A stretch of 64,000 nucleotides of DNA from Candidatus Magasanikbacteria bacterium GW2011_GWA2_56_11 (lineage in GTDB: Bacteria; Patescibacteriota; Patescibacteriia; Magasanikbacterales; UBA922): contig LCRX01000004.1 in assembly GCA_001004885.1 (NCBI GenBank), positions 11,178 to 75,177 on the forward strand. Reading direction: 5' to 3'. Positions 31,072-56,355 of the stretch are shown here, one piece after another (position 1 is the stretch's first letter; the number at the start of each line of letters is the position of its first letter). The position numbers and the translations under genes were made by a program. Below the pieces are notes generated by a model. The model made no database searches. It was not told the DNA's origin and saw nothing but the letters and a program-made list of their open reading frames with translations.

Positions 31072-32463
31072 ATGTCTGTGTACCCCTGTCCGCAAAAATA
31101 TTTAGTCCGCGACCGGCGCGGTTCGGCCCTCCTGTTCGTAATGATCTTTGGCGCGATCGCCTTTACCATGATTGTGATGGGGCTCTCCGGCTACGCGCTA
31201 TTCGAGCACCGGGCGGCGCGGCGGCTCGGACACCGCGACCAGGCGTTCCATGTGGCCGAAGCCGGCATTGACTATTACCGCTGGCATCTGGCGCACAGTC
31301 CGACCGATTATACCGATGGTACCGGGGAGGCGGGTCCTTATCTGCACGAGTACACCGACAAAGACGGTACGGTTCTGGGCGCGTTTTTGCTCGCGGTCAG
31401 CCCGCCCGACTCCGGTTCGACCGTGGTAACGGTGAGTTCCACCGGCTGGACACTGGCCGAGCCGACGGCCAAGCGCACTGTCCAGGTGCGGCTGGGCTAC
31501 CCGGCGCTGACGGACTACGCCATTATGGCCAACTCCAACATGCATTTCAGCTACACTACCCAGGTATCCGGCGCGGTGCAGGCCAACGGCGGCATCCGTT
31601 TCGACGGTACGTCGGATTCGTGGGTGAGGAGCTCCAAGGAGACGTACCAGTACCAGAACCAGACGCATAACGGGGTCTGGGGCGGCGGCGGTCCGAAGTC
31701 TTTTTGGCAGTATCCGGTGCCGGCGGTCGATTTTAACGGCCTCACGGCCGATCTGGCCGCGATCAAGACCCAGGCGCAGGCAGGCGGGGTTTATCTCACT
31801 TCGTCGGGAGACGAGGGCTGGCACCTGGTGTTTAAGCCTGACCGCACTTTCGACGTGTACCGCGTGGATACCCGGCGGTGCTACAACGGCGAGGGTAAAT
31901 ATATCGGCAAATGGTGGCAGGGCAACGTGTACTGTTACGATATCGACGCGGAACAATTCGTGGCGAACTACCCCCATCCGGGCAACGGATACATTTTTGT
32001 CGAAGACCATATTTGGGTGGAGGGCATAATAGCGGGCCACCTGACGGTCGGGGCGGGACGGTTTCCCTCGTCGCCGGCCAACTACCGCAACATTTACCTG
32101 CCCGGAAATATTACCTACGCCGCTGTTTCGCAGGACGTTTTGGGGCTTATCACCCAGGGGGATATCGTGATCCCGCACGACGTGCCCGAGACGATGACGG
32201 TCCAGGCAGCCCTGCTATCGCAGTACGGCAAAATTTACCGGCCGTATTATTACCAGGATGAGCGCGATTCGTTGACCATTTTCGGCTCCCAGATATCCTA
32301 CAACGGTTCGGGCTACAAGTATGTAAACGGCTGGGGGAACGTCGTGTCCGGATTTGTGAATACGAACCATATGTACGACGCCAATTTGAAATATTACCCG
32401 CCGCCGGGGTTTCCGGTGGAGAATACCTACGAGATGATTAGCTGGGAAGAAGTCGGAAGTTAG
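31072..32463 (+). CDS. PilX-like type IV pilus minor pilin / pilus assembly protein
   Basis: N-terminus RRGSALLFVMIFGAIAFTMIVMGLSGYALFEHRAA resembles the PilX_N domain. Large C-terminal region. Confidence 0.55.
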   Translation: MSVYPCPQKYLVRDRRGSALLFVMIFGAIAFTMIVMGLSGYALFEHRAARRLGHRDQAFHVAEAGIDYYRWHLAHSPTDYTDGTGEAGPYLHEYTDKDGTVLGAFLLAVSPPDSGSTVVTVSSTGWTLAEPTAKRTVQVRLGYPALTDYAIMANSNMHFSYTTQVSGAVQANGGIRFDGTSDSWVRSSKETYQYQNQTHNGVWGGGGPKSFWQYPVPAVDFNGLTADLAAIKTQAQAGGVYLTSSGDEGWHLVFKPDRTFDVYRVDTRRCYNGEGKYIGKWWQGNVYCYDIDAEQFVANYPHPGNGYIFVEDHIWVEGIIAGHLTVGAGRFPSSPANYRNIYLPGNITYAAVSQDVLGLITQGDIVIPHDVPETMTVQAALLSQYGKIYRPYYYQDERDSLTIFGSQISYNGSGYKYVNGWGNVVSGFVNTNHMYDANLKYYPPPGFPVENTYEMISWEEVGS

Positions 32464-32698: not shown

Positions 32699-33571
32699 AT
32701 GCCGACACCAAAAGTGAAGAAAGGAGTCATAACCGTCGCCGGACTCGGCACCAGATTTTTGCCGGCCACCAAGGCCATGCCCAAGGAAATGCTCCCGGTT
32801 TTGGACAAGCCGGTGGTGCAGTACATAGTGGAGGAAATGGCCCAAAGCGGGATTACCGAAATTATTTTTGTTACCAGCTCCCAAAAACGCCCGATCGAGG
32901 ATCATTTCGACCGCGACGGCGATTTTGAGCGCTACCTAAAGGAAAAGGGCAAATCAGACCGGATTCAGCCCCTGGTCGAGCTGTCCGAGCGGGTGCGGTT
33001 TTTTTATACCCGCCAGAGCGCCCCTTTGGGCAACGGCCACGCGCTTTTGTGCGCCCGGGAATTCATCGGCAGCGAGCCGTTCGCTTTCTCGGACGGCGAC
33101 AGTATTATTGACTCCAAAACTCCGGTTACGAAACAGCTGCTCAAGGTATTCTACCGGGTGCGTTCGTCCGTCATTGGGGTGCAGCGCATTGACGATCGCG
33201 CGGCCATGACCAAATACGGGAACGTGTACGGCAAGCGCACGCGCGAGCCGCGCACTTACCGGGTGAGCGAGTTTCGGGAAAAACCTCCGGTCGAGGCAAC
33301 CTCCCCGGAAGGGCTGATAGTCGGCGGTATGCGGTATATATTCACCAAAGACATCTGGCCCATCCTAGAGGGACAGTCCCGGGGCAAAGACAATGAAATT
33401 TGGGTGGCGGATGCGGCCAATGCCCTGGCCAAACGCCGGTCATTTTACGCCTACGAGTACGAGGGCATCTATTTTGACACGGGCGACAAAGTGGCGCTCC
33501 TGAAAACGGCGCTGCACTTTGCTTTCAAGGATCCGGCTATTGCCCTCGAAATCAAAAAATTAGTGCAGTAG
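32699..33571 (+). CDS. galU: UTP--glucose-1-phosphate uridylyltransferase
   Basis: GVITVAGLGTRFLPATKAMPKEMLPV and VQYIVEEM are GalU motifs. The track ORF start at 32594 is inside the repeat; the ATG at 32699 is used. Confidence 0.85.
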   Translation: MPTPKVKKGVITVAGLGTRFLPATKAMPKEMLPVLDKPVVQYIVEEMAQSGITEIIFVTSSQKRPIEDHFDRDGDFERYLKEKGKSDRIQPLVELSERVRFFYTRQSAPLGNGHALLCAREFIGSEPFAFSDGDSIIDSKTPVTKQLLKVFYRVRSSVIGVQRIDDRAAMTKYGNVYGKRTREPRTYRVSEFREKPPVEATSPEGLIVGGMRYIFTKDIWPILEGQSRGKDNEIWVADAANALAKRRSFYAYEYEGIYFDTGDKVALLKTALHFAFKDPAIALEIKKLVQ

Positions 33572-33589: not shown

Positions 33590-34480
33590 ATGCCTACTAT
33601 TTTGAGAATTCAACTCCGTTTGGCGTGTGCCGGGTTAGCTATCCTGTTTTTGTTTTTTGCCGCCTCACCAACGCTGGCCCTTGACGCATCGGCCTGCGCG
33701 CAGCTTTATGGCCAATCATATTCTGGCTGCGTTCTTCTTGAAAAGGGGGCTTTTGCAGACGCCTGTCAGAATGCCCAAGGACCGTTCAAGGCCAAACTGG
33801 AGCAAACTTTGTCAAGCGGCGCGGCGCAAACCGGATCGGCCTGCACCCAGACGTTTTTGCTCATGTATAATAATTCCCAGGGAGACTTCGCGGCTGATAC
33901 CGATATCGAAAAATGCGTCGCCGAACTGGTAAACTGCGCCGAGTTGTTTTTGCAATGCCAGGGCAATACCGGCCAGGTGGACATGAACGATTTGGAAAGC
34001 CAGTGCAATTATTTTCTGGCGGGCGGCACCAAAAATTGGTCGCAGTTTAAGGGGCAAGACTTATGCAGCGCGGCTATAAAATCCGAGGGAGTCTGGGGAG
34101 AGAAGTGCGCCAAATATACCGGCGACCTGGAGAAGACCAAGGCCGAAGAAGGGTTGACGCCCCCAGCCGGCAAAGACCAGCAGGCTGAGTACGCTGCCGC
34201 TCTGGCGGAACTTCAGGCCAACGCCGCCGGGCTGAACCAGCTCAAAACCAAGGACATACGTTTGCTTATCGGCGGCCTGATAGCGAAGGCGCTCGGCGTC
34301 GTGGGCAGCATCGCGTTGTTGATGTTCGTGTATGGTGGTATACTGTGGATGACCGCGGCCGGCTCGAGCGAAAAAACCGAGAAAGGGCGCCAGATTTTGG
34401 TCTGGAGCGCTCTGGGGGTAATAGTGATTTTTTCGAGCTACGCTCTCTTGGATATAGTCTTCGAGGTGTTCCGTCCATAG
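33590..34480 (+). CDS. Secreted Cys-rich protein with C-terminal TrbC/VirB2-like pilin-type membrane domain
   Basis: Signal peptide and ~14 Cys in the N-domain. C-terminus LIGGLIAKALGVVGSIALLMFVYGGILWMTAAGSSEKTEKGRQILVWSALGVIVIFSSYALL. Confidence 0.65.
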   Translation: MPTILRIQLRLACAGLAILFLFFAASPTLALDASACAQLYGQSYSGCVLLEKGAFADACQNAQGPFKAKLEQTLSSGAAQTGSACTQTFLLMYNNSQGDFAADTDIEKCVAELVNCAELFLQCQGNTGQVDMNDLESQCNYFLAGGTKNWSQFKGQDLCSAAIKSEGVWGEKCAKYTGDLEKTKAEEGLTPPAGKDQQAEYAAALAELQANAAGLNQLKTKDIRLLIGGLIAKALGVVGSIALLMFVYGGILWMTAAGSSEKTEKGRQILVWSALGVIVIFSSYALLDIVFEVFRP

Positions 34481-34528
34481 CCAGCCTCGGCCGCGCGCGC
34501 ACGCGCCCGGGAAGAAAATTATTGCCGT

Positions 34529-35944
34529 ATGGTTTTGTCTTTGACAGGTTTAGAGGCGCCGCGGGGCGGGAAGACTCGCCGTTGGGTATCCCTCGCCGTG
34601 CTTGGCCTGTTTTTTGTTACCCTGGGTTTCGGTTGCAAGGGTCTTTCCCAACAAGAGAGGGCGGCGGTCAAACCGGTAACTCTCAACTACTGGACCGTGT
34701 TCAACGATACCGAGGAACTCAAACGGCTGGCGTCCGAGTACCGCCAGCTCCGGCCTTATGTCAAGGTCAACATCCGCCAGGTCCGCTACGAGGAGTTCGA
34801 CCGCCTGTTTCTAAACGCGCTCGCCGACGATGTCGCTCCGGACGTGGTTTCTCTGCACGCGCGCTGGATTAAAAAATACCAAAATCGCCTCGCCGAAATG
34901 CCGGCCAGCGTTTCCACGGCCCGCCTGATAGTGAAGGGCGGCCTGACCAAAGAAACCCAGGTAGTAGTCGACACTACTCCCATGCCCGGCATCGGCGACA
35001 TTAAGCGCGATTATGTCGGCGCGGTGGCCAATGACGTAATTATTGGCGAGGCTGTCTACGGACTGCCGATCGCTCTCGACACGCTGGCCATTTATTACAA
35101 CAAGGACCTTTTGGACAAGGCCAACATCGCCGAACCGCCGGCCACCTGGGACGAATTTTTGGAGGCGGTGAAAAAAACCACCAAATTCGGCCCGGACGGC
35201 AAGATCGTCCAGTCTGGCGCCGCCCTCGGTACGGCCAACAACATTGACAACGCTTTCGATATCCTGTCGGTTCTCATGATGCAAAACGGGGTCAAAATGG
35301 CCGCCAAAGGATCGGTGCAGTTCGCGAGCGGTCTCGACAAGGCGGGCGAGACGCATCCCTCGCTCCAGGCTCTGCGTTTTTACACCGATTTTGCGCGCCC
35401 GACCAAGGAATCATATTCCTGGAACGAAACCATGGAGCCGGCTCTCGATGCTTTCGTGCGCGGCAAGGCCGTGTTTTACTTTGGGTTCGCCTACGACAGT
35501 TCCCGTATCACCAGCCGCGCGCCCGAGCTGAATCTGGAGGTTATCCCGCTGCCCCAGCTGAACCCGTCCGCGCCGGTGAACGTCGCCAATTACTGGGTAG
35601 AGGCGGTAGTAAAAAAATCCAAGCACCAGAACGAAGCCTGGGATTTCATCCGGTTTATGACCGCGCCGGATCAGGCCAAGCGGTACGCCCTCTCTACCGG
35701 CCGGCCGTCTGCGTACCGGACGCAGATCAAAGAATTGGCGGACAATCCCCGCCTCGGTCCGTTCGTGAGCCAGACGCTGATAGCGGAAAACTGGTACCAC
35801 GGAGAGGATATTACGCAAGCGGAAAAAGCTTTTGACGATTTAATCACCGCCACCCTGCGGCCTTACGCCGACAAGGACGACCCGACCAAACGCGATGCCG
35901 GGTTTATCGCTACTGCGGCGCAGATGGCGCAGCAGACTTTTTAG
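34529..35944 (+). CDS. ABC transporter substrate-binding lipoprotein, family 1 (sugar/oligosaccharide type)
   Basis: Lipobox LGFGC and a type-2 periplasmic binding fold typical of SBP_bac_1 (~470 aa). Confidence 0.7.
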   Translation: MVLSLTGLEAPRGGKTRRWVSLAVLGLFFVTLGFGCKGLSQQERAAVKPVTLNYWTVFNDTEELKRLASEYRQLRPYVKVNIRQVRYEEFDRLFLNALADDVAPDVVSLHARWIKKYQNRLAEMPASVSTARLIVKGGLTKETQVVVDTTPMPGIGDIKRDYVGAVANDVIIGEAVYGLPIALDTLAIYYNKDLLDKANIAEPPATWDEFLEAVKKTTKFGPDGKIVQSGAALGTANNIDNAFDILSVLMMQNGVKMAAKGSVQFASGLDKAGETHPSLQALRFYTDFARPTKESYSWNETMEPALDAFVRGKAVFYFGFAYDSSRITSRAPELNLEVIPLPQLNPSAPVNVANYWVEAVVKKSKHQNEAWDFIRFMTAPDQAKRYALSTGRPSAYRTQIKELADNPRLGPFVSQTLIAENWYHGEDITQAEKAFDDLITATLRPYADKDDPTKRDAGFIATAAQMAQQTF

Positions 35945-35947
35945 GGT

Positions 35948-37453
35948 ATGCGGAAATTAAACTGGCAAAAGGCGAGTGTTTGTCTTTTAGGCATATTCTT
36001 TTTGCTGTTTCTATTTTGCCCGCTGCCGACCGGGGCGGAACTTAATAAAGGAGTTAGCTATAAAGCAGTAAACGAGTGCCCTGATCCTGGCACAGGCAAA
36101 AAAATTGCTTTGTTCGTACTGGCTTTGAATCGACCACCGGCTGATTCACCGCCTCCACCTGAGGAGTACTGCGTCCCCGTTACTGACACCCAAAATACGG
36201 TCTCCTTTCAGGATTTGGTTAGTGCCGGTGTTTTCACAGACGATTGGGCAGGAGAAACATATACTTTTTCCGTTTCTGATGGCGCGGGCTGTAATTTAGA
36301 TCCGAAGATTGTCTATTGGAAAGAGGGCGCGCTGAAAGATTTGCCTCAGGCTAAATGGCCAGAACTTTCTCCGGAGATGCCGCTTTCTGGGGCGCAGTTC
36401 GTGGTGAGTGGTAAGGTCGATTATAAATGCATTGTGATGGCAGGGTCGGAACCGGAGTTACAAGACAAAAAAGATTTGAATATTATTTACTTTGTCACCG
36501 ATCCGAAATATGGACCGGAGATGGAGAAGGGGTGGGCGACTCTTGTCCCCAAGGGATTTTATGGGGACTTAGCGTACGACCAAGACGCCATTGATTGGGA
36601 AGGCGCAACAGAGATAAAGGTGGATTTTGGCGCAGTAAAGGAAATCACTGTGTTTGCCGAAGAGGACGGAGCGGGCACCAGTGGGGAGGTAAAAATAGAA
36701 TGCCTTGACTGTAACAAGGACTGGTCCGGGTTTAAGACAGAAAAAATCGAGGGCGGCGAAACAAAGGCAGTTATCAAGGTAGACACCGGCGCCTATTATG
36801 AAAAAATGGGAGTGGAGCTGCCGGCAAAATTTACCGTTAAGCTCAAAGGGACGGTGGGGAGCAAAAAAGGGCCTAGGTACAGCTTCTTTGAGTTTTCCAT
36901 CACCATCAACAAATTCAACTGCGCGGAAAAGAAAACCGGGAGCGACTGCAACAAAAACACGCAGTGTTTCTTTTTTGAAAATATTTGTCAGAGCAAGTAC
37001 GACAAGAATATCTGCAAACAGCTGCCGCAGACCCTGTGCGCCCCGGCGCCGGGCGGCAGCAAGGTTTGCACCTGGAACGAGGCCACCAAGCAGTGTCTCG
37101 AGCCGGTCGCGACGAGCATCGCCGAGAGCTACGGCGTGCCGGACGGCTACAAAGGCCCGCTGCCGCCCTGCGCCTTCTCCGGGACGTGCGACAATATCAA
37201 TATCCTCCTGAATTTGTTTATTGCCCAGGGCAAAGGCATTTTCGGCCTCATCGGCGTGGTGGCGCTCGGCGCTTTCGTTTACGGCGGTTTTATGATGATT
37301 TTCTCTCTCGGCAGCTCCGAGAGGGTAGAGACAGGGAGAAAGGCGATGACCGCGGCCGTAGTCGGGCTCATCATATCCTTTAGCGCTTATATCCTGGTGG
37401 ATTTTGTTCTCGACGCCCTCAAAGTGAGCGATTCATTCAAGGTCATAAAATAA
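35948..37453 (+). CDS. Large secreted Cys-rich protein (501 aa) with C-terminal TrbC/VirB2-like pilin-type domain
   Basis: Signal peptide and a Cys-rich ectodomain. C-terminus IFGLIGVVALGAFVYGGFMMIFSLGSSERVETGRKAMTAAVVGLIISFSAYILVDF. Confidence 0.65.
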   Translation: MRKLNWQKASVCLLGIFFLLFLFCPLPTGAELNKGVSYKAVNECPDPGTGKKIALFVLALNRPPADSPPPPEEYCVPVTDTQNTVSFQDLVSAGVFTDDWAGETYTFSVSDGAGCNLDPKIVYWKEGALKDLPQAKWPELSPEMPLSGAQFVVSGKVDYKCIVMAGSEPELQDKKDLNIIYFVTDPKYGPEMEKGWATLVPKGFYGDLAYDQDAIDWEGATEIKVDFGAVKEITVFAEEDGAGTSGEVKIECLDCNKDWSGFKTEKIEGGETKAVIKVDTGAYYEKMGVELPAKFTVKLKGTVGSKKGPRYSFFEFSITINKFNCAEKKTGSDCNKNTQCFFFENICQSKYDKNICKQLPQTLCAPAPGGSKVCTWNEATKQCLEPVATSIAESYGVPDGYKGPLPPCAFSGTCDNINILLNLFIAQGKGIFGLIGVVALGAFVYGGFMMIFSLGSSERVETGRKAMTAAVVGLIISFSAYILVDFVLDALKVSDSFKVIK

Positions 37454-37462
37454 CCTGCCGCT

Positions 37463-38167
37463 ATGCGCTCTGCCCGCTGGTTTGGCCTCATGGCCGCGTT
37501 CGCGATTTTTGGCGCCGGTTTGGCGTCCACGACTACAGCCCTGGCCGTCGCCTCTCCGAGCAAAGTGCCGCTCATAAATCCGATCGGCGGCACGGTGGCC
37601 AAACCGGAAGGCCAGACCAGCATCCCGAAAATTATCGGGGGCATGATTAAAACCGTTCTCGGGATAATGGGCTCTTTGGCTTTCATTGCTTTTATCTACG
37701 GCGGGTTTGCCTGGCTCACGGCCGCCGGCAACGCCGACCGGGTGCAAAAAGGAACGCAGGCAATGGTATGGGCGGCGATAGGCGTATTTATTGTTTTTTC
37801 GAGTTATGCTATACTCAGTCTAGTTTTTGAGGGACTGGGGATAGAAGACCAGGCGCCGCCGGGTACGACCGTTTGGTGCATCGACAATGCCAACAGCGTG
37901 TGTGCCGAATTTTTGGCGGACGAGTGTCCCGGCTCCCCGTACGTTACCGAACAGGAGTGCCAGACAGTGCTGGAAAATTACCTGGACGCCCCCCCGCCGG
38001 TTGATTTGGAAGGCTGTTTCTGCACCATCGACTCGGTGGCGCAGCAAAAAGTAAGCGGCAGCCCGCTCTATGACGACCCGACAAAATGCGCGGCCGCGAG
38101 CGATACGACCGACCCGGCCCTCGGCCACCTGACCGAATGCGGCTGGATCGGCGGGGCATTTGAATAA
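37463..38167 (+). CDS. Protein with N-terminal TrbC/VirB2-like pilin-type domain and C-terminal Cys-rich domain
   Basis: Signal peptide, then IIGGMIKTVLGIMGSLAFIAFIYGGFAWLTAAGNADRVQKGTQAMVWAAIGVFIVFSSYAIL, followed by a tail containing 9 Cys. Confidence 0.65.
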   Translation: MRSARWFGLMAAFAIFGAGLASTTTALAVASPSKVPLINPIGGTVAKPEGQTSIPKIIGGMIKTVLGIMGSLAFIAFIYGGFAWLTAAGNADRVQKGTQAMVWAAIGVFIVFSSYAILSLVFEGLGIEDQAPPGTTVWCIDNANSVCAEFLADECPGSPYVTEQECQTVLENYLDAPPPVDLEGCFCTIDSVAQQKVSGSPLYDDPTKCAAASDTTDPALGHLTECGWIGGAFE

Positions 38168-38216
38168 AAGAGTAAAGCTATGGAATTTATCTACATAATA
38201 GAAGGGAGGTGATATC

Positions 38217-38723
38217 ATGTCTACGTTAACAAAATTGGCGAAGCACCGGTCGGTTATCGCGGCCGTGTCAGTTTTCGCCCTCGCTGTGGCCCTTTTGCCG
38301 GGTACAGTGTCCGCCAAAGCCGTGGGAGAAACTTGTGTCAAAGATTTGGAGTGCGACGCCGGACTCACCTGCCAGAGCGGTAAATGCGGCAAGGATGTCT
38401 TTGGGTTAAACCCGATCGACGAAGAAGTCGGCAACACCCTCGGCAATGAGGACCTGCGCAGCACCATCGGTCGTTTGATCAACGTGGCGCTCAGCTTGCT
38501 CGGTATCATCGCCGTCGTCATCATTCTCGCCGGTGGCTTCAAGTGGATGACCGCCGGAGGCAATGAAGACAAAGTGGGAGAGGCCCGCAAGATGATCTTT
38601 TCGGGTATTATCGGCCTGGCCATCATATTGTCGGCTTGGGCGATTGCCTTGTTCGTCTTGAATCAGCTTAACAAGGCGACGAACCCGGACGCGTCTGAGG
38701 ATATCTCCGATATTATCGACTAG
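38217..38723 (+). CDS. TrbC/VirB2-like pilin-type protein with small Cys-knot N-domain; first gene of the 9-gene tandem array (candidate major subunit)
   Basis: GAAGGGAGGTG RBS. Signal peptide, CVKDLECDAGLTCQSGKCG, then RLINVALSLLGIIAVVIILAGGFKWMTAGGNEDKVGEARKMIFSGIIGLAIILSAWAIALF. Confidence 0.7.
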   Translation: MSTLTKLAKHRSVIAAVSVFALAVALLPGTVSAKAVGETCVKDLECDAGLTCQSGKCGKDVFGLNPIDEEVGNTLGNEDLRSTIGRLINVALSLLGIIAVVIILAGGFKWMTAGGNEDKVGEARKMIFSGIIGLAIILSAWAIALFVLNQLNKATNPDASEDISDIID

Positions 38724-38730
38724 TTTCCGC

Positions 38731-38765
38731 GGGCAGGGGGTCGCCCCCTGCCCTTGCTCTTTATT
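38731..38765 (+). terminator. Strong GC hairpin GGGCAGGGGG-tcg-CCCCCTGCCC + T-rich tract (terminator/attenuator after first pilin-type gene)
   Basis: Perfect 10-bp stem read from the sequence. Confidence 0.55.
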
Positions 38766-38778
38766 CCCGGTTTGACGG

Positions 38779-38806
38779 GTGATACCTGGCCGGGGCCAGG
38801 TATCAC
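38779..38806 (+). promoter_or_regulatory. Second perfect 11-bp hairpin GTGATACCTGG-ccgggg-CCAGGTATCAC upstream of the next pilin-type gene
   Basis: Read from the sequence, followed by a T-rich region. Confidence 0.45.
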
Positions 38807-38829
38807 GTGTTAAATTCTTTTACTTTTCT

Positions 38830-39267
38830 ATGACTTCGCGCCGCCTTTTCCAGGCCCTGTCCCTGGGTATTATGGCCTGGGCCTCTTTGGTCCAGGTTAC
38901 GTTCGCCGATCCGCCGGCACCCCAGCCGCCATGCGGCATTGACCCCAACGACCCGCTGGCGCTCGACTGCGCCGCGGCCAGCGGACTGGTAGCCACCGAT
39001 CCGCGCCTCATAGCCGCGCGGATTATCAACGTAATTCTGGGCGTTCTAGGCACGGTGGCGACCCTGCTTATCTTCTACGCCGGCTTTCTCTGGATGACGG
39101 CCGCGGGCAACGAAGACCAGGTAACCAAGGCCAAAAGCATTATGTTCAGCGCAGTGGTGGGGTTGGTAATTATTTTGAGCGCCTTCGGCATCTCGACTTT
39201 CATCGTGCGCTACATTTACGAGGCCTCGTCCGGCGCGGGCTACGGTTCGGGCCCGGTCATTCCCTAA
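38830..39267 (+). CDS. TrbC/VirB2-like pilin-type protein
   Basis: Signal peptide MTSRRLFQALSLGIMAWASLVQVTFA and DPRLIAARIINVILGVLGTVATLLIFYAGFLWMTAAGNEDQVTKAKSIMFSAVVGLVIILSAF. The track ORF start at 38779 lies in the hairpin. Confidence 0.7.
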   Translation: MTSRRLFQALSLGIMAWASLVQVTFADPPAPQPPCGIDPNDPLALDCAAASGLVATDPRLIAARIINVILGVLGTVATLLIFYAGFLWMTAAGNEDQVTKAKSIMFSAVVGLVIILSAFGISTFIVRYIYEASSGAGYGSGPVIP

Positions 39268-39293
39268 ACCAACTCTCTTACTTTTAGGCTGTT

Positions 39294-40118
39294 ATGGCAA
39301 ACTTCCGCTCAAAAAGAATCCTGATTGCCGGCTTTGTCGCGGCCGCGGCCTGCTTCTTTTCTTTTTCCGCGGCCCTGGCCCAGTATGGCCTGGCCGAGAC
39401 CGCGAAAAGCGCGGGAATTCCCACCAACAAGAGCATTCCGGTGATACTGGGCGACGCCATCGGCACCGGACTCTCCATGATTTCCGTGGTTTTCTTCGCG
39501 CTCATGCTCTACGCCGGCATCCGCTGGATGATCGCGCGCGGCAATGATGAAGACGCCAAAAAGGCGCAGGATACCATTATTGCCGCGGTTATTGGCATTG
39601 TGATAGTGATTGCCGCCTACGCGCTGACCAATTTTGTTTTTACGAGCGTGGGAATTAGCACCGCCGGCGGGGCGGCGGCGCCCAAGGCTCCGGGCGGGGG
39701 GGCAGCACCGGCAGTACCGGTTGTGCCGGGCGGGGGAGGCGCGCCTGGAGGTTGGCCCGATCCGGTACCCGAACCAGAAATCCCGCCAGGCCCAGGACAA
39801 CCCCCAGGTCCGGGTGCTCCGCAACCACCTGGTGGTTCTAGCGGGGCCTGTGTGCCGAAAAACAATGATGCTTCTTGTCAGAGTCAATTTGAACAACAAT
39901 GGGCAGGTTACAAGGGGGCAGGTGGAACCGCTACGGATGACAACGCCAAGAAAGTTGCCTGTGTCGGAGATGACACAAACGGCTGCACATGGGACATCGC
40001 AGCACAAAAGTGTGTATTGTCCGGGGCTGCCGAACAATGTACAGCTCTTAATGAAGAGCCGGACACCGAGGAAGCGAAGGCGTCTTGTGGAGCAAGTTTT
40101 TACTGTAAGTGGCAGTAA
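39294..40118 (+). CDS. TrbC/VirB2-like pilin-type protein with Gly/Pro-rich linker and C-terminal 8-Cys domain
   Basis: Pilin-type domain LMLYAGIRWMIARGNDEDAKKAQDTIIAAVIGIVIVIAAYAL, then PGGGGAPGGWPDPVPEPEIPPGPGQPPGPGAPQPPG, then a Cys-rich tail. Confidence 0.7.
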   Translation: MANFRSKRILIAGFVAAAACFFSFSAALAQYGLAETAKSAGIPTNKSIPVILGDAIGTGLSMISVVFFALMLYAGIRWMIARGNDEDAKKAQDTIIAAVIGIVIVIAAYALTNFVFTSVGISTAGGAAAPKAPGGGAAPAVPVVPGGGGAPGGWPDPVPEPEIPPGPGQPPGPGAPQPPGGSSGACVPKNNDASCQSQFEQQWAGYKGAGGTATDDNAKKVACVGDDTNGCTWDIAAQKCVLSGAAEQCTALNEEPDTEEAKASCGASFYCKWQ

Positions 40119-40160
40119 AAACAGGGTTCGTTCTGTCAGAAGGTGGATTAACAGTACCGC

Positions 40161-40844
40161 ATGAGCATAAAACCTTTTACACTTAGTTTGCTGGTGCTGG
40201 CCCTAACTCTGGCGCCGGCGTATACGGCGCAGGCCAAGAAAACCCTGGGCGATACGCCGACTGCCCTCAACAGCGCGGTGGCCCCGACCGGCATTGAAAA
40301 AACCGATGTATTGTCCATTAGCGGCAAAGTAGTGAAAGGGGCGCTCGGGATGGTGGGGCTGGTTTTCTTCGTTCTCATGGTCTATGCCGGCATCCGCTGG
40401 ATGACGGCCCGGGGCGACGAGGACGCGGCCAGCAAGTCGCGCGACACGATGATAGCGGCAGTAATCGGACTGATAATAATCGTGGCCTCGTATGCAATTA
40501 CCAGTTTTGTTACCGACCGTATTGTACTGATGCAAACGGCAGTGGATGTTGACGGCTCCGGCCTGAGCGGCGACATGCTGGGAAACGAACCACTGGCCTG
40601 CTGCATCGTGCCGGCCACCGCTAACCCGAACAGTCCGTATACGGCGAGCCTGCGCACCGAGGCCGAGTGCGCCAGTTTGTCCGAGGGCGGGGTGCAGGGA
40701 GCGGACTGGGAAATTTATCATATTCCCAACAATAATTTTACCGTTTGCGAAGCGATCAATAATTGCTGGAATAATCCCAACGGCAGCCAGAGCACTTTTT
40801 TTGCTGAGTGCCTATCCAAGGCAGGCGTAAAGAGCGAACCTTAA
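40161..40844 (+). CDS. TrbC/VirB2-like pilin-type protein with C-terminal Cys-rich domain
   Basis: LVFFVLMVYAGIRWMTARGDEDAASKSRDTMIAAVIGLIIIVASYAI followed by a tail containing 7 Cys. Confidence 0.7.
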   Translation: MSIKPFTLSLLVLALTLAPAYTAQAKKTLGDTPTALNSAVAPTGIEKTDVLSISGKVVKGALGMVGLVFFVLMVYAGIRWMTARGDEDAASKSRDTMIAAVIGLIIIVASYAITSFVTDRIVLMQTAVDVDGSGLSGDMLGNEPLACCIVPATANPNSPYTASLRTEAECASLSEGGVQGADWEIYHIPNNNFTVCEAINNCWNNPNGSQSTFFAECLSKAGVKSEP

Positions 40845-40848
40845 ACCT

Positions 40849-41214
40849 ATGAAGTACTTATATTCTTTTCTACTGGCTGTTCTCGGCCTGGCACCGGGCA
40901 TATTATCGGCCGCCGGTATCCAGAGTTCCGGGCCTAATTTGTCCACGGTAGCCAAAAAAGCCGAGTTTTCGGAAAACGTACTCCTGCCGGAAATAGTCGG
41001 CACGGTTATTAACGCCGTGCTTAGTTTGGTCGGGCTAATTTTTTTGGTCCTCATGGTCTATGCCGGCATACTGTGGATGACGGCTAGGGGCGACGAAAGC
41101 AAGGTGGAGAAAGCGAAAACCATTATCGAGGCTTCGCTTATCGGGCTGTTCATTACGGTCAGCGCCTATGCCATCACCGTATTTCTTACCGGCCGCTTTG
41201 AAACCGCACCCTAA
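40849..41214 (+). CDS. TrbC/VirB2-like pilin-type protein (minimal, 121 aa)
   Basis: Signal peptide plus LIFLVLMVYAGILWMTARGDESKVEKAKTIIEASLIGLFITVSAYAI. Confidence 0.7.
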   Translation: MKYLYSFLLAVLGLAPGILSAAGIQSSGPNLSTVAKKAEFSENVLLPEIVGTVINAVLSLVGLIFLVLMVYAGILWMTARGDESKVEKAKTIIEASLIGLFITVSAYAITVFLTGRFETAP

Positions 41215-41224
41215 TTTATTTTTT

Positions 41225-41677
41225 ATGACCGCTCTCGCCCAAAAGTTTGCCCCCTTCCTGCTGATATTCATTCTCGGACATTTTTTGGCGGCCCCGGCCC
41301 TGGCCCTGAACCTGGGCGGTGGGGACACCGGTAGCACCTGGCAGGCCGCGGACAAGGCCGGGTACGACAAAGCCGGAGAGACGACACTGGCCGAGACGGC
41401 GGGTAAGATAATAAAAATTGTGCTTTCGGTGGTGGGCGTAATATTTACCGCCCTCATGGTTTATGCCGGCATACTGTGGATGACGGCTAGGGGCGACGAA
41501 AGCAAGGTGGAGAAAGCGAAAGATATTATTGAGGCCTCGATAATCGGGCTCGTGATTGCTCTGGCTTCGTACGGACTGACGAGTTTTGTGGTGAATAACG
41601 TGCTCGATCAGACGGCGCCGTCGCCGGCCGCGCCGGAGCCGGTTCCCGAATCTGGTGCAGGGGGTGCTGGCGAGTAG
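41225..41677 (+). CDS. TrbC/VirB2-like pilin-type protein with short Ala/Pro-rich tail
   Basis: VIFTALMVYAGILWMTARGDESKVEKAKDIIEASIIGLVIALASYGL. The track ORF starts at 41168; Met20 is used. Confidence 0.7.
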   Translation: MTALAQKFAPFLLIFILGHFLAAPALALNLGGGDTGSTWQAADKAGYDKAGETTLAETAGKIIKIVLSVVGVIFTALMVYAGILWMTARGDESKVEKAKDIIEASIIGLVIALASYGLTSFVVNNVLDQTAPSPAAPEPVPESGAGGAGE

Positions 41678-41726
41678 TAGTTTTTTGTCCGGCATTTAAC
41701 GGTCGTCCTCCTCTAAGGATATACTT

Positions 41727-42155
41727 ATGCCCTTCTGGTACAAAATAAACGTGATGGTGCTCCTGGGGGCTTTTACCCTCACAGCCTCTCCGGCAGCCGC
41801 GGCTCCGAAATTCCTGGGTGATATAGACAAGCAACTGAACGCCGGAGCCGGGACTGCCGGCCTGGCCGCCAAGAATGTCGCCCCGGCCGATCCGCGCCTA
41901 GTGGCCGCCAGCTTTATCCAGACGATACTCAAGGTGCTAGGCGTGGTTTTCGTCGTCCTTATTGTTACGGGCGGTTTCCGTCTGGTCAAAGCCAACGGCG
42001 ACGAGAGTAAGATTGAAGAGGGCACGAAGACCGTCCAGATGGCGGTCATCGGGCTTTTGGTAGTTTTGTTTGCCTACAGCATCGCCTGGTTTGTCGGCAC
42101 CCAGATCCAAAAAGCTATTAATAACGCCGCGCAGGCGACCTCTGCCGGCAGCTGA
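41727..42155 (+). CDS. TrbC/VirB2-like pilin-type protein
   Basis: DPRLVAASFIQTILKVLGVVFVVLIVTGGFRLVKANGDESKIEEGTKTVQMAVIGLLVVLFAYSIAWF. Confidence 0.7.
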   Translation: MPFWYKINVMVLLGAFTLTASPAAAAPKFLGDIDKQLNAGAGTAGLAAKNVAPADPRLVAASFIQTILKVLGVVFVVLIVTGGFRLVKANGDESKIEEGTKTVQMAVIGLLVVLFAYSIAWFVGTQIQKAINNAAQATSAGS

Positions 42156-42158
42156 CCT

Positions 42159-42668
42159 ATGAGACAGTTCGCAGTCGCCACTGTTTTTTTAGCCGCCTTT
42201 GCCGCTTTGGCCGCGGTTAGTTTGTCGCCCGGCAGGGCCGGCGCGCAGTCTTTGGCCGACGAAATTAACAAGCAGAGCGGCGCTTTTGCCGGAACGCAAG
42301 GCGCCAATTTAAAGAATGCCGATCCGCGCCTGCTCATGGCCCAGATAATTAAAATCTTTCTGACCCTTATCGGGACACTTTTTCTCGCCTACACCACCTA
42401 TGGCGGTTTCCTTGTTTTTACCGCGGCCGGCGACGCGGACAGGATCGAACACGCCAAAAAGATTATCTTCTACGGCAGTATCGGGGTGTTGATCGTCTTG
42501 ACTGCCTACAGCATCGCCTGGTTTATCTGGCAAATGTGGCTTGACGCGCAAAATCAAAATCCGTTTGGCAGCTTTTTCGAGTGGGGCGTGCAGCCGGACA
42601 CCAGCCAGTTTTACATCAAAGATCCGCTTTACGGACCGACAGTGCCAAAAGAGCTGGGCCCTCTCTAG
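42159..42668 (+). CDS. TrbC/VirB2-like pilin-type protein (last of tandem array)
   Basis: DPRLLMAQIIKIFLTLIGTLFLAYTTYGGFLVFTAAGDADRIEHAKKIIFYGSIGVLIVLTAYSIAWF. Confidence 0.7.
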   Translation: MRQFAVATVFLAAFAALAAVSLSPGRAGAQSLADEINKQSGAFAGTQGANLKNADPRLLMAQIIKIFLTLIGTLFLAYTTYGGFLVFTAAGDADRIEHAKKIIFYGSIGVLIVLTAYSIAWFIWQMWLDAQNQNPFGSFFEWGVQPDTSQFYIKDPLYGPTVPKELGPL

Positions 42669-43780
42669 AGCGACGAAAGAATCGTACGCAAAATACACCG
42701 CGCCGCCGGTGTATTTTTTGTTTCCGGCGCTGGCTTGGTCTGTGGCCGGTCAAGGCAGTCCTTTACCCGCTCGATGATTTCCGGCACGGAATTGGCCGCG
42801 GCTCCGCCGCCGGTGGCGGCCAGAAAACGGGCATTGCCTTCTTCCTGGCCGGGAATGGGACTAACGGCGATGAGAGGCCGGCCGAGCACCTCGCACTCGG
42901 CCATGGTCAGCCCGCCGGGTTTGCTAATGACGGCGGCGGCCAGGCGCAGGTAATCATCCAGCCGGTCGGTCCACCCCAGAACGCCGAACGTAATGTGCGG
43001 GGGGGCGGCCAGACGGCACAGTTCACGGTAAAGTCCGCGGTTTTGGCCGGCGACAGCGATAACTGTTAAGGGGCGGGAAATAGAGAACAACGCGGACACG
43101 ATACGCTGCGTGTCTATGAGTCCTTGGCCGCCGGATAAGACCAAAAGCATTGGCCGGCCGGGCGGAATCTCGCACGAGCGGTAAAGCGCCGCCGGCTCGC
43201 GCTGTTCATAAAAGCGGGGGTGGACCGGTATTCCGCTCACCATGACCCTGTCGGACGCTATTTTAGTTTCGCGTATCACCGCGAGGCGCAGCTCTGCTGT
43301 CGGGACAAAGTAAAAACTGGCGCCGGGGGCGGACCAGTATTGATGGAAGCTGTAATCGGTAACCACAACCGAGAACGGTACGGGCGAAAAAAAACGTTCA
43401 GGCGGCCTGGCCAGAGCCTGGGCCGCGATGCCGTTCGTGCAGATGATATGGTCGGGCCCAAAGCGGGTGATAGCCTGGTACAGGCGGCGGGCGGCCAGTG
43501 GTTTGAGCGGGGCGGTAAGGAGGCTGAAAATTTCGTGCGCCGGCCGGTAGTTGGTCGTCTGGTAAAACATTTTCCAGGCGAAAGGCAGATAACGCGCCAA
43601 AAGGTGGAAAGAAGAGATGAATCCGGTTCCGAGCCCTAAATCCAGGTAGCGGGAAATTTCTATATGCTTGATGACTGCCTCCGGGCACTCCTGCCTGGCA
43701 GCGGCCGCTATAGCCTCGGCCGCCCGGACATGACCGGAGCCGGCCGCGAGAGAAAGCAGGAGGAGGCGGTGGCGGGCCAT
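42665..43780 (-). CDS. Glycosyltransferase family 28 (MGDG synthase / UgtP / MurG-like)
   Basis: N-terminus LLLSLAAGSGHVRAAEAIAAA is the GT28 glycolipid-synthase type, with a C-terminal GT-B half (KPGGLTMAECEVLGRPLI). Confidence 0.65.
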   Translation of the reverse strand: MARHRLLLLSLAAGSGHVRAAEAIAAAARQECPEAVIKHIEISRYLDLGLGTGFISSFHLLARYLPFAWKMFYQTTNYRPAHEIFSLLTAPLKPLAARRLYQAITRFGPDHIICTNGIAAQALARPPERFFSPVPFSVVVTDYSFHQYWSAPGASFYFVPTAELRLAVIRETKIASDRVMVSGIPVHPRFYEQREPAALYRSCEIPPGRPMLLVLSGGQGLIDTQRIVSALFSISRPLTVIAVAGQNRGLYRELCRLAAPPHITFGVLGWTDRLDDYLRLAAAVISKPGGLTMAECEVLGRPLIAVSPIPGQEEGNARFLAATGGGAAANSVPEIIERVKDCLDRPQTKPAPETKNTPAARCILRTILSSL

Positions 43781-43791
43781 GGCGCGTTTGG

Positions 43792-46098
43792 TTATAAGAG
43801 ATTAGTCTGCAGGTGATAGTACGGCGGACGGTGGCGGTAGCGCTTGATGGCCATTTCGATGATAGCTTCGAGGAAGTCGCCGTAGTCCATGCCGACAAGC
43901 TGGGCTACGGACGGGACGCAGTCGCCAATATCTATCGAGGGGTTGGGGTTGAGCTCCAGCACATAGGGGTTGTCATCCGCGTCGACGCGCAGCTCGACGC
44001 GGCCATAGTCGTGGCAGTCGAGAATAGTGTAGGTGTCAAGAGCGATCTCGGTAATGAGAGATTCGAGTTTTTTGGCGATATTTTTGGGCGGTTTTTGGGT
44101 AATTACTTTGTTGTCATACACCGGGTCAAGCGACCATTTGGCATTGTAGGGGAAAATGTGCCAGTAGCCTTCGGGCAGGTCCTTGAAGATACTGCGCGAC
44201 AGGGGCAGCACCTGCAGGTCGTGGCGCTCGCTGCCGAGAATGGAGACGTCGTACTCGTCGCCTTCGATGTATTCCTCCACCAGGGCCGGGCTGCCTACTT
44301 CGACGATAATCCTTTCCAACTGTTTTTGCAGCTCCCGGCGGTTGGTAACCACCGAATCGTTCGTAATGCCGATCGAGTTATCGGTGTTGGCCGGTTTGAT
44401 AATGAGCGGGTAACGCAAGTCTTCGCTGATTTTGTCCTCCATGGTGTAGGCGTAGTCCCATTTGGGAGTGGGGATGTTGTGGTAGGACAGCAGTTTTTTG
44501 ACCCGGATTTTGTCTATACACAGCGAGAGCGTGAACGGGTTGGAGTTCAGGTCGTCAATCACTTCGGGGAAGCGGTTGAAATTGAAGATACTTACCCGGT
44601 AGCCGCGCTCGCGCAGGGTCCGTTCGATGTTTAACGCCCGGTTCATCAGGTCGCTTTCTTCGCTTTTCGCTTCGCCATTGTAGACGTTGGCCGCTATCCC
44701 CAAGTGCAGGCGGCGTTTGTCGGATTTGGCCAGCCGGCGCAGCCGTTCAATGCGGCTGTTCGCCTTGGTGAGAGGATTGGAACTGATGAGGGCCGACGAG
44801 AAGCGGTTTTTGCGCGAGGTTTTGCCGAGCGACGAGTAACTTTTGAAAGGCGCTACCTCAATGTGCACGCGCTCTTCAACCTCGGCGAGCGCGGCCTCGG
44901 CCTCGGCGTAGGACTGGCCTTGGATGAGCACCCAGCCGATGTCCTCGAAGCCCTCGGGCGGGACGAGCACGGTATCGCCGACTTCCTTGGCCAGGAAATA
45001 ATCAACCACGGAGGGGTGTTTTTTTATCTCGTCAAAACCGCTGATCTGCGTGATCAGGCCGGAGCTTTTGGGAATGAAGTACTTGGCGACGATATGTTTT
45101 TTCGGTTCTTTGGCTTGGTCCGCGACATTGAGTCCGAGCGCGATTTCGGCGCCGGCTTTGATGAGATCGACGCCGTAAATTTCCTGGATCGATTTGTGCG
45201 TGTAATCGCCGCCCAGCCGCGAGGCCGCCTCGATCACTTTCGGCCCGTCTTTAGTCAGTTTGATTTCCACCTGCGCCAGGCTGTTTTGGACTTTGAGCAC
45301 GATAAGGGCCGCTTTGGCCGCTTCAGTCAGGGCCGCGAGCTCTCCCTCGTCGATGCGCGGTGGCGCGTAGTCGCCGGTTTCAAGAAAGAACGGCAGATTC
45401 ATCGCTGTTTTTTCGTGAACCCCGACAATGTGCGGGACGCCGTGTTGGACGTAACCTTCGAGGCTGAATTCGTGTCCCTCAATGAATTCCTGGTATAAAA
45501 AGAGCTTTTTATTGTACTTGTACACCGGATCGTAGTCCGGGTTACAGTTTTTCATCAAGTACTCGTAACCCTCTTCGGCTTCGTGGCGGTCGGAAACGTA
45601 GACTACGAATTGGCTGTCCGAACCGAGCAGCGGCTTGAGCACGGCCGGGAATTTGATCCGGCGCATGGCCGCCGTCAGGTCTTGGCGGTTCTTGATCAGC
45701 TCCTGGGAAATATACGGTTCGCCGCAGGCCCGCAGTACTTCCTGCATGTGGAATTTGTTGCGCGTATTCACGGCCGCCTCGGGCGAGTTGCCGATCCATT
45801 TAAACTCGGCGCATAGCTTGGCCAGAAGGGGAATGTCGTCTTCCCAGAAAGTAACCGCGCCGTCGATGGCGAGCGCTCCGCGTGAAGAGAGATAGGTTCT
45901 AACCGCCTCGACAGACTCGGTGTGGCTGTAGGTGTCGGCCGGTATCCACTGGTCTACGTACGGGTTGGCCCAGGGTTTTTCGCGGCCGAGCACCACCAGG
46001 TTGAGTCCGAGTTTTTTCAATTTTTGGAGGATAAATTTTTTTTTGATTGACCCGGTATTTACCACGAGCAAATTTTTTTTAGCCAGTCTGGTGGTCAT
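43792..46098 (-). CDS. Fusion of two ATP-grasp ligase domains (N-terminal carboxylate-amine ligase-type + C-terminal D-Ala-D-Ala ligase-like)
   Basis: N-domain NTRNKFHMQEVL...FPAVLKPLLGSDSQFVVYV...LYQEFIEGHEFSLEGYV. C-domain YIEGDEYDVSILG...DCHDYGRVELRVDADDNPYVLELNPNPS. The track ORF uses GTG at 46116; ATG at 46098 is used here. Confidence 0.65.
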   Translation of the reverse strand: MTTRLAKKNLLVVNTGSIKKKFILQKLKKLGLNLVVLGREKPWANPYVDQWIPADTYSHTESVEAVRTYLSSRGALAIDGAVTFWEDDIPLLAKLCAEFKWIGNSPEAAVNTRNKFHMQEVLRACGEPYISQELIKNRQDLTAAMRRIKFPAVLKPLLGSDSQFVVYVSDRHEAEEGYEYLMKNCNPDYDPVYKYNKKLFLYQEFIEGHEFSLEGYVQHGVPHIVGVHEKTAMNLPFFLETGDYAPPRIDEGELAALTEAAKAALIVLKVQNSLAQVEIKLTKDGPKVIEAASRLGGDYTHKSIQEIYGVDLIKAGAEIALGLNVADQAKEPKKHIVAKYFIPKSSGLITQISGFDEIKKHPSVVDYFLAKEVGDTVLVPPEGFEDIGWVLIQGQSYAEAEAALAEVEERVHIEVAPFKSYSSLGKTSRKNRFSSALISSNPLTKANSRIERLRRLAKSDKRRLHLGIAANVYNGEAKSEESDLMNRALNIERTLRERGYRVSIFNFNRFPEVIDDLNSNPFTLSLCIDKIRVKKLLSYHNIPTPKWDYAYTMEDKISEDLRYPLIIKPANTDNSIGITNDSVVTNRRELQKQLERIIVEVGSPALVEEYIEGDEYDVSILGSERHDLQVLPLSRSIFKDLPEGYWHIFPYNAKWSLDPVYDNKVITQKPPKNIAKKLESLITEIALDTYTILDCHDYGRVELRVDADDNPYVLELNPNPSIDIGDCVPSVAQLVGMDYGDFLEAIIEMAIKRYRHRPPYYHLQTNLL

Positions 46099-56200: not shown

Positions 56201-56227
56201 ACGCTGGTTGTTAGCTCGGTGAATACG

Positions 56228-56299: not shown

Positions 56300-56355
56300 G
56301 TGGCGGCCGTTTAGGCCCGGCGTCCCGGAAATTTTCCCATTTTTAAGGCTTTTTG

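Follow-up and report, generated by a model that had tools for sequence, protein, structure and literature searches.

Introduction

Tandem arrays of genes for predicted VirB2-like pilins are a published feature of Patescibacteria. In Southlakia epibionticum, a series of predicted pilins lies within an essential type IV secretion cluster (Wang et al. 2023, PMC10633639), and the VirB2-like pilins were found to be essential in this organism, the one species tested; in Saccharibacteria, homologous arrays likewise sit inside the VirB4/VirB6 cluster (PMC10633639). A search of 3,035 Patescibacteria genomes with the Pfam profiles PF18895 and PF04956 recovered 441 arrays of 2-11 pilin genes with a mean identity of about 25%, for which variation for host adaptation was proposed, and placed pilin genes close to virB4 in 1,135 assemblies (Quinonero-Coronel et al. 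2025, PMC12102498). A 2025 review regards the Patescibacteria arrays as the sole VirB2-type pilins in a monoderm system, and the homologous array of TM7x was earlier read, by analogy with pertussis toxin, as a set of Sec-secreted effectors (McLean et al. 2020). The subject of the present analysis is an array of eleven such genes in Candidatus Magasanikbacteria bacterium GW2011_GWA2_56_11, at positions 33590-42668 of a stretch of 64,000 nucleotides (nt) that was analysed as a whole and is called the window below (assembly GCA_001004885.1, contig LCRX01000004.1, positions 11,178-75,177 of the forward strand).

The source genome is a Patescibacteria (candidate phyla radiation, CPR) bin from groundwater of the Rifle aquifer, and the window lies on a 160-kb scaffold. 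Table S1 of PMC12102498 lists the assembly under class ABY1, with a size of 1.25 Mb and the entry 'Presence of VirB4: Yes'. In that study an array consists of at least two pilin genes in tandem or with one non-pilin gene between them, a definition that covers the eleven genes analysed here, among which a single solute-binding-protein gene is interposed. As in the published arrays, the genes are tandem, divergent paralogues that match PF18895 and encode signal peptides, no relaxase accompanies them, and the genome is listed as possessing VirB4, which in the published cases is of the monoderm type. Unlike the published arrays, however, the Magasanikbacteria array is located outside a type IV secretion system (T4SS) cluster, in a block with genes for minor pilins, GalU, a solute-binding protein and a glycosyltransferase. 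The preliminary description of this DNA held the system to be uncharacterised. This is true of its function alone, since such arrays have been published, are essential in S. epibionticum, and the assembly itself forms part of the 2025 dataset. The array is thus the Magasanikbacteria form of a known Patescibacteria VirB2-like pilin array, the specific organisation of which is undescribed in the literature searched: neither PMC10633639, PMC12102498 nor the related papers searched mention cysteine-rich or immunoglobulin (Ig)-like grafts, a fixed class order, or a single class bearing the signals of a major subunit.

Results and Discussion

The array and its shared module

A profile built from the shared module and run against all six reading frames of the window recovered 12 open reading frames (ORFs) carrying a two-helix module of about 80 amino acids (aa), with E-values from 2e-37 to 2e-14 and no further match at E < 1, well outside what chance would produce. 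Eleven of these lie in the array and one, the solo member, at 2170-2700; all 12 are on the + strand. The preliminary description had counted thirteen genes, although its own list contains 12. Its tight tandem of nine genes, spaced by 0-50 nt, is indeed a head-to-tail array, but one of ten genes (35948-42668) with gaps of 3-106 nt, the 106-nt gap containing a hairpin. Scans for tRNAs and Rfam families showed that the array holds no known RNA.

Pfam PF18895 (T4SS_pilin) has a gathering score of 26.6 bits, which 11 of the 12 proteins pass with 28.1-50.5 bits, while the product of the gene at 42159 falls just short. By these profile scores the module is a member of PF18895. Through homologues of the 501-aa array protein, three further contigs from Magasanikbacteria were located that keep the gene order but have different flanks, and a scan restricted to one genome per species added 80 further loci, whose informative titles name Magasanikbacteria or unclassified Patescibacteria (approximately 30 bear the placeholder title 'uncultured Gammaproteobacteria'). 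Cross-species statistics were drawn from 765 modules in the related loci. These share the consensus Y-[GA]-G-F-x-W-M-T-[AS]-x-G-N-x-E-x-V-x-K-A ... I-G-L-x-I ... [AS]-Y-A-I, in which three glycines are at least 99% invariant, so that the motif noticed at the outset is borne out. In all classes the predicted cytoplasmic loop is the best-conserved part of the protein.

An ordered set of paralogue classes

In the three other genomes, the 11 paralogues are reciprocal best hits position by position, with 31-65% identity, and in a neighbour-joining tree the modules cluster according to their place in the array and not according to genome. Every one of the 765 modules lies on one strand within its locus. 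Paralogue counts in related genomes, a comparison that the preliminary description had proposed, gave a median of 11 genes for complete arrays and a range of 9-14. The classes, numbered 01 to 11 from the 5' end of the array, follow one another in ascending order through class 09 in 52 of 53 main-clade loci; a more distant clade shows the variant order solute-binding protein-02-01-03-04, and orthology is less well resolved for classes 10 and 11. Architecture is also kept at each position, in that classes 01 and 02 carry N-terminal ectodomains, classes 06 and 07 are cysteine-rich at the C-terminus, and classes 04, 05 and 08-11 are short. Lineage-specific duplications are few.

The grafted domains, by contrast, differ strongly from species to species, both in length and in sequence. 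By sequence comparison, the array is therefore an old set of about 11 paralogue classes, kept in order, in which the modules are stable and the grafts alone are variable. The family had been introduced as an expanded and polymorphic one, a picture that has to be given up for the paralogues, which are old, one-to-one orthologous and fixed in order, and that applies to the grafted domains alone.

Class 04 as a candidate major subunit

Class 04 (38217-38723) encodes a 168-aa protein with a signal peptide, a mini-domain with 4 Cys and the hairpin (PF18895 38.2 bits); the mini-domain is absent from the orthologues in two loci, L011 and L012. Its gene is preceded by the Shine-Dalgarno sequence GGGAGGTGA and directly followed, at 38731-38753 (+), by a GC-rich stem-loop of 10 pairs with a ΔG of about -24 kcal/mol. 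Both signals recur across species. A strong Shine-Dalgarno sequence precedes 84% of class 04 genes (median -12.3 kcal/mol), compared with 0-13% of the genes in other classes. The median ΔG of the 3' hairpin is -19.7 kcal/mol for class 04, as opposed to -3.5 to -5.8 for classes 01-03 and 06-10, -6.5 for class 05 and -11.7 for class 11; class 04 is followed by the strongest hairpin of its array in 40 of 60 loci, and the hairpin sequences differ between species. Furthermore, the class 04 module has a median cross-species identity of 66.7%, whereas the other classes range from 42 to 59%.

This layout resembles that of the classical pap, fim and type IV pilA operons, in which a stem-loop stands behind one subunit gene of high expression and many accessory subunit genes of low expression keep a fixed order. 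The array shares the putative major gene, the stem-loop and the ordered accessory genes, but its protein families and assembly pathways are unrelated to those of the classical operons, and its hairpin often lacks a U-tract. The stem-loop at 38731-38753 can be read as an attenuator, a terminator or an mRNA-stabilising hairpin. Because of the strong Shine-Dalgarno sequence, the strong 3' hairpin, the highest module conservation and the analogy with pilus operons, class 04 is predicted to be an abundant major subunit among low-copy accessory subunits. The expression signals of this class favour a filament logic of major and minor subunits.

Architecture of the remaining array proteins

Large ectodomains are found on five of the 11 array classes, while the other six are proteins of 121-169 aa with at most a stretch of 2 or 4 Cys. 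Class 01 (33590-34480, 296 aa) consists of a signal peptide, an ectodomain of about 185 aa with 10 Cys and a C-terminal hairpin (PF18895 31.7 bits), and is recovered by reciprocal best hits. Class 02 (35948-37453, 501 aa) has the same arrangement, with an ectodomain of about 390 aa containing 16 Cys (28.1 bits); alignment reveals a conserved juxtamembrane motif, YKGPLPPCAFSGxC, directly before the hairpin. The AlphaFold2 model of class 02, calculated from a 12-sequence alignment, has a mean predicted local distance difference test score (pLDDT) of 55 and reaches 70-84 solely in residues 211-330 and the hairpin; hence only the β-sandwich at approximately residues 211-330 was used, and residues 30-210 were not interpreted. 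In Foldseek searches this Ig-like sandwich matches Ig/Siglec-like adhesin domains (E ~2e-5), resembling the Siglec-like domains of streptococcal adhesins as well as other Ig-like domains.

In class 03 (37463-38167, 234 aa), the signal peptide and hairpin are followed by a 103-aa C-terminal extension with 8 Cys, and the orthologues measure 174, 234, 559 or 569 aa. Class 06 (39294-40118, 274 aa) carries its graft on the same side, a 149-aa extension composed of a Gly/Pro-rich linker and a domain with 8 Cys, for which orthologues reach 46 Cys. The NCBI label of this protein, 'chitin-binding protein', is supported by no domain search and was rejected. Class 07 (40161-40844, 227 aa) ends in a 100-aa domain with 6 Cys, a number found likewise in all three of the first orthologues. 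Across species, the C-terminal domains of classes 06 and 07 contain a median of 8 and 6 Cys, respectively, with a maximum of 52. No known Pfam domain was detected in the ectodomains of the window proteins and 10 orthologues, and weak matches to EB and PSI (E 0.004 and 0.07) were not accepted.

The short classes comprise, in addition to class 04, class 05 (38830-39267, 145 aa, 2 Cys ahead of the hairpin; 37.8 bits), class 08 (40849-41214, 121 aa; 33.9 bits), class 09 (41225-41677, 150 aa; 39.5 bits), class 10 (41727-42155, 142 aa, with the divergent loop LVKANGDES; 29.2 bits) and class 11 (42159-42668, 169 aa, with a 36-aa C-terminal tail), the final gene of the array, which scores 24.5 bits with PF18895 and E 9e-26 with the module profile. 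Class 08 is the minimal form, made up of a signal peptide, a short helix and the hairpin; its AlphaFold2 model (pLDDT 81.5) has helices at residues 46-77 and 83-119, and the hairpin exceeds 90. A terminator-like hairpin with a T-run (42690-42717, +) lies between the class 11 gene and the convergent glycosyltransferase gene.

The solo member (176 aa), 31 kb from the array, has a Thr/Pro-rich N-terminal stretch and the highest PF18895 score, 50.5 bits. With it, all the fusions named in the preliminary description, namely N- and C-terminal Cys-rich domains, a Gly/Pro-rich linker and a Thr/Pro-rich stretch, are present as described. Genes for pilB (T2SSE) and pilC (T2SSF), at 1-1584 (-) of the window and within the 10 kb before its start, are divergent from the solo gene. 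A functional tie between them was rejected, as the nearest homologues of the solo member have other neighbours.

Membrane topology

According to hydropathy, all 12 proteins begin with a hydrophobic segment that ends at an AxA-like site and is followed by a two-helix hydrophobic hairpin, and a prepilin leader of the G↓FxxxE type is absent from all 12. Signal-peptide cleavage and export by the Sec pathway are predicted from this pattern. Cysteine is missing from 651 of the 765 modules. In contrast to this, Cys-containing C-terminal extensions of 30 aa or more have an even count in 211 cases and an odd one in a single case, and the N-terminal ectodomains of the window proteins likewise have even counts once the signal peptide is removed. 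This parity argues that both termini lie outside the cell, where they would be disulfide-bonded, with the conserved charged loop in the cytoplasm; it also supports the extracytoplasmic position that the preliminary description had assigned to the ectodomains. Such an arrangement, as deduced here, is the membrane topology of VirB2. In solved conjugative pili, the subunit termini are found on the outer surface, and therefore the grafted domains could, by analogy, be displayed on the surface of a filament.

Relationship to VirB2/TrbC and to other pilin families

With VirB2 of Agrobacterium, TrbC of RP4 and TraA of F, the array proteins have in common a signal peptide, two hydrophobic helices, a short polar loop and a predicted location of both ends outside. 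Sub-threshold matches to Pfam TrbC occur in two window proteins (E 0.007 and 0.07) and in five of 10 orthologues (E 4e-4 to 0.04). When compared by hhalign with a reference of 8 authentic VirB2/TrbC genes taken from annotated plasmids, the module aligns collinearly through TM1, loop and TM2 with a probability of 35-51% and P-values of 1.6e-4 to 4e-4, to which the composition bias of transmembrane (TM) helices may contribute; the matching profile positions follow the pattern G-x-x-W-M-x-x-G ... G-I-x-I-x-F-x-A. The relation to VirB2/TrbC claimed in the preliminary description is supported, weakly but consistently, by these TrbC signals, which stay below the gathering threshold of PF04956 (TrbC/VirB2), and kinship of the module with VirB2 is plausible, not proven. 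The Magasanikbacteria loop is 7 residues longer and of mixed charge, a single pilin gene is replaced by 11 paralogues, some of the proteins bear large ectodomains, VirB1, VirB3 and VirB4 are not adjacent, the host is monoderm rather than diderm, and neither cyclisation nor acetylation is indicated for the hairpin proteins.

The best NCBIfam match for all 12 proteins is NF045849 (Mbov_0395 family, from integrative and conjugative elements of Mycoplasma), with E-values of 3e-8 to 1.4e-2 and 15-33 bits, below the cutoff of 40 bits. The NF045849 protein is a pilin-like component of a monoderm conjugation system, and its alignment with the window proteins spans nearly the whole 80-position model; unlike the array genes, it occurs as a single copy in a mobile element. 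In fold searches the hairpin is indistinguishable from other helical hairpins, and ATP-synthase c subunits are also similar.

A further parallel is offered by the modular type IV pilins (Raynaud et al. 2021, PMC8179133), which follow the same design of a small polymerisation module with a grafted adhesive module, the grafted forms probably occupying low-copy or tip positions in both systems. The pilin modules themselves are unrelated, being a helical hairpin with a Sec signal peptide in the array proteins and a prepilin α1-N helix with a globular head in the type IV pilins; the array proteins carry grafts at either end, and they are not members of IPR012902, which defines the modular type IV pilin class.

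Many top-scoring relatives of the family outside the window contain 2-17 hairpin modules per polypeptide. Representative searches returned proteins of 820 aa with 8 modules (P0021), 1,775 aa with 17 modules (P0031) and 269 aa with 2 modules (P0032). No internal signal peptides separate the modules of P0021, which suggests a concatenated 'poly-pilin' and not a read-through gene call. Such multi-hairpin relatives bear on the question of lateral hairpin packing.

The conserved neighbourhood of the array

The array belongs to a block that begins with a gene (28619-30415, +) for a 598-aa modular type IV (pre)pilin-like protein, MP598, which has the leader G↓FSLLE, a CarboxypepD_reg-like β-sandwich and a PEGA domain. 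It scores 23.8 bits with Pfam N_methyl (cutoff 21.2) and 18.6 with TIGR02532 (cutoff 16.3), and 49 related loci carry it in the corresponding place. A Magasanikbacteria protein tops the list of modular type IV pilin architectures in PMC8179133, and MP598 may be of the type pictured there. Two further syntenic genes on the same strand follow, one for the prepilin-type minor pilin-like MP206 (30449-31069, 206 aa, leader RSG↓VTMVE), which matches N_methyl below threshold at 16.3 bits and weakly in its orthologues too, and one for MP463 (31072-32463, 463 aa), a GspK/PilX-like minor pilin candidate with an N-terminal hydrophobic helix, no Glu at +5 and a faint NCBIfam GspK match (E 0.061). Thus, where three prepilin-leader genes and galU had been described upstream of the array, leaders are present at 28619 and 30449 and galU is confirmed, but the gene at 31072 lacks the Glu at +5.

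The syntenic galU gene (32699-33571, +) ends 18 nt before class 01; its product is a GalU-like UTP-glucose-1-phosphate uridylyltransferase that matches Pfam NTP_transferase and reaches 268 bits (E 1e-79) with TIGR01099, under the equivalog cutoff of 326.8. Between classes 01 and 02, at 34529-35944 (+), lies the gene for a 471-aa carbohydrate-type solute-binding protein with a lipobox-like LGFGC motif (SBP_bac_1 E 6e-29; weak NCBIfam matches to GanS, NgcE and MalE), which is present in 80 of 83 loci with no ATP-binding cassette (ABC) permease or ATPase gene beside it. The array abuts a convergent glycosyltransferase gene (42665-43780, -), whose product is UgtP/YpfP-like, that is, similar to diglucosyl-diacylglycerol synthases of family GT28 (MGDG_synth; PRK13609 E 1e-42). 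A convergent UgtP-like GT28 gene abuts the array in 15 loci besides the window, and in 16 loci a co-directional GT2 gene lies 4-53 nt after the last pilin gene.

The order of the block is accordingly MP598, MP206, MP463, galU, class 01, solute-binding protein, classes 02-11 and glycosyltransferase. All four genes of its head can be seen in 49 loci; of the 19 loci whose upstream sequence reaches far enough, 17 have them. The flanks beyond the block consist of unrelated housekeeping genes, which are not the same from one species to another. The link between the array and type IV pilus minor-pilin genes, already noticed in this genome, is conserved across approximately 80 species, and this synteny makes a functional tie to the type IV pilus possible. 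The presence of galU and a glycosyltransferase gene at the two ends of the array suggests that UDP-glucose-dependent glycosylation or glycolipid supply may be tied to the pilins.

Pfam searches of the window and of up to 10 kb past either end yielded no VirB4, VirD4 or VirB6, as the preliminary description had stated for the window, and in the 80 species the ORFs of 550 aa or more that lie up to 10 kb from the array include no VirB4-like ATPase, coupling protein or relaxase. A conventional conjugative element was therefore rejected, given that VirB4, a coupling protein, VirB6 and a relaxase are all missing near the pilin genes.

Several other features of the locus were recorded. In about 10 species, small genes of the four-helix-bundle 23S_rRNA_IVP family are inserted at varying points among galU, class 01 and the solute-binding-protein gene (loci L011-L013, L022, L025, L027, L042, L055, L059, L061 and L066), with none in the window. 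Just past the array block, at 43792-46116 (-), lies a gene for a 774-aa double ATP-grasp protein with L-amino-acid-ligase-like and D-Ala-D-Ala-ligase-like halves, which is split in two in some assemblies, suggesting strain variation or a frameshift. Another secreted Cys-rich protein is encoded near the array at 19387-20499 (+); its family is widespread and nearly CPR-specific (Meheust et al. 2018). Further downstream, the region 56227-59317 contains a tRNA-Arg (56227-56299) and, after it, a gene for a tyrosine recombinase (56356-57351, -) and two ORFs of 234 aa each, of which the one at 58613-59317 has a weak NikA-like mobilisation match (E 5.5e-5). This region may be what is left of a small integrated element; alternatively, the recombinase may just be XerC/D.

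A predicted heteromeric surface structure and its alternatives

Taken together, the conserved order, the topology and the expression signals are best explained by one heteromeric surface structure, whether a pilus, a short stalk or a conduit, with modular adhesin-like minor subunits, a reading to which we give about even confidence and in which polymerisation is itself an inference. The 11 classes would be co-assembling parts of this single structure, with class 04 (38217-38723) as the abundant repeating subunit and the other ten classes as low-copy, position-specific subunits. Classes 01, 02, 03, 06 and 07 would act as 'modular pilins', their disulfide-rich or Ig-like grafts pointing outward and binding the surface of the host cell. 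Assembly would proceed through the chromosomal, relaxase-less T4SS of Patescibacteria, the VirB4 of which would be encoded elsewhere in the 1.25-Mb genome, in keeping with the listing in PMC12102498. The block as a whole, co-inherited and probably co-expressed with the three minor pilins, GalU, the sugar-binding lipoprotein and the glycosyltransferase, would then constitute a host-contact module. A more ambitious version proposes a composite host-contact organelle, in which an 11-subunit VirB2-type filament or stalk with one major subunit and modular adhesin pilins is tied, both genetically and functionally, to the tip minor pilins of a type IV pilus and also to glycosylation or a supply of glycolipids that depends on UDP-glucose. 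This version we consider doubtful; if true, it would have no described counterpart.

Several points weigh against a heteromeric filament. To our knowledge, PF18895 proteins have never been observed as a filament. With PF04956, scores reach 17.0 bits among the window proteins and 20.9 among the orthologues, against a gathering threshold of 27.9, and the module profile matches no solved pilin by sequence. A helical filament of the VirB2 type may have difficulty in accommodating ectodomains of 200-400 aa, and the relatives with 2-17 hairpins per polypeptide could signify a membrane-embedded bundle rather than an extruded pilus. Nor is the class 04 hairpin a clear-cut signal, as it often lacks a U-tract.

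It is from these relatives that the main alternative draws its strength, namely that the hairpin stays in the membrane as an anchor, ring or bundle and displays the Cys-rich domains on the surface, in essence the display system favoured by the preliminary description. Fused hairpins without internal signal peptides would suit lateral packing in the membrane, and large ectodomains on five of 11 classes, the distance from any type IV secretion ATPase and the generic fold, shared with ATP-synthase c subunits, are all compatible with such a role. Yet six of the 11 classes have almost nothing to display, and the most conserved class with the strongest expression signals, class 04, bears just its 4-Cys mini-domain, or none at all in L011 and L012. 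Conservation is greatest in the cytoplasmic loop, which is easier to reconcile with a common assembly machine than with a passive anchor, and the homology signals lead to conjugation pilin-like proteins; we therefore judge a purely anchoring role to be unlikely, albeit the strongest competitor of the heteromeric structure. A different connection is suggested by the block itself, in which MP598, MP206, MP463, galU and the pilin genes are kept on one strand while the flanks differ, and by the fact that the array is never near VirB4 in loci of the Magasanikbacteria type: the hairpin proteins might serve the type IV pilus machinery instead of a T4SS, for example as a platform in the membrane or a sheath for the pilus whose tip minor pilins would be encoded by the first genes of the block. 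Within the window, the solo copy also adjoins pilB and pilC, but this adjacency is not conserved. All 12 proteins possess AxA-type signal peptides and lack the prepilin leader, whereas homologous arrays in Saccharibacteria lie inside the VirB4/VirB6 cluster and pilin genes are near virB4 in the 1,135 assemblies of PMC12102498, which makes service to the type IV pilus improbable.

Little probability, to much the same degree, is left for the proposal of PMC12102498, made in analogy with Bartonella and Anaplasma, that the paralogues are alternative major pilins for antigenic variation or the matching of host strains. The paralogues are divergent, with a median module identity between classes of 36.7% within one genome, and their ectodomains differ strongly in length and sequence between species. 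However, stable modules in one-to-one order, with only the grafts varying, argue against a variation repertoire: orthology and order are fixed in 52 of 53 species, the architecture typical of each position is retained, signals of high expression are confined to one class, and lineage-specific duplications are few, whereas diversifying repertoires normally turn over fast. An array of secreted effectors or toxin subunits, or a conventional conjugative element, is the least credible explanation and very improbable indeed. N-terminal signal peptides and a tandem array are what the former would predict, and Sec-secreted substrates were proposed by McLean et al. (2020), but in every member two strongly hydrophobic helices follow the signal peptide, as in integral membrane proteins. 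The latter is contradicted by a chromosomal block with housekeeping flanks and by the missing relaxase, coupling protein and VirB4 within 10 kb in 80 species. The heteromeric surface structure is retained as the best explanation. It builds on what the analysis shows of the identity of the family, its conserved order, the expression signals, the topology and the neighbourhood, with co-assembly, the bulk role of class 04, host binding by the ectodomains and assembly by a distant T4SS as its inferred elements.

Implications

Patescibacteria account for a large part of the diversity of bacteria, and their way of life is one of attachment to other microbes. For the structures that may mediate such contact in Magasanikbacteria, the analysis provides a parts list of about 11 conserved classes together with a candidate major subunit, class 04, which can be looked for in proteomes and in cryo-electron microscopy maps, and it names classes 01, 02, 03, 06 and 07 as candidate host-binding modules. 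It furthermore defines a conserved neighbourhood whose products, namely the minor pilins, GalU, the sugar-binding protein and the glycosyltransferase, may be partners of the pilins, and its results argue against the published suggestion (PMC12102498) that arrays of this kind are a repertoire for variation.

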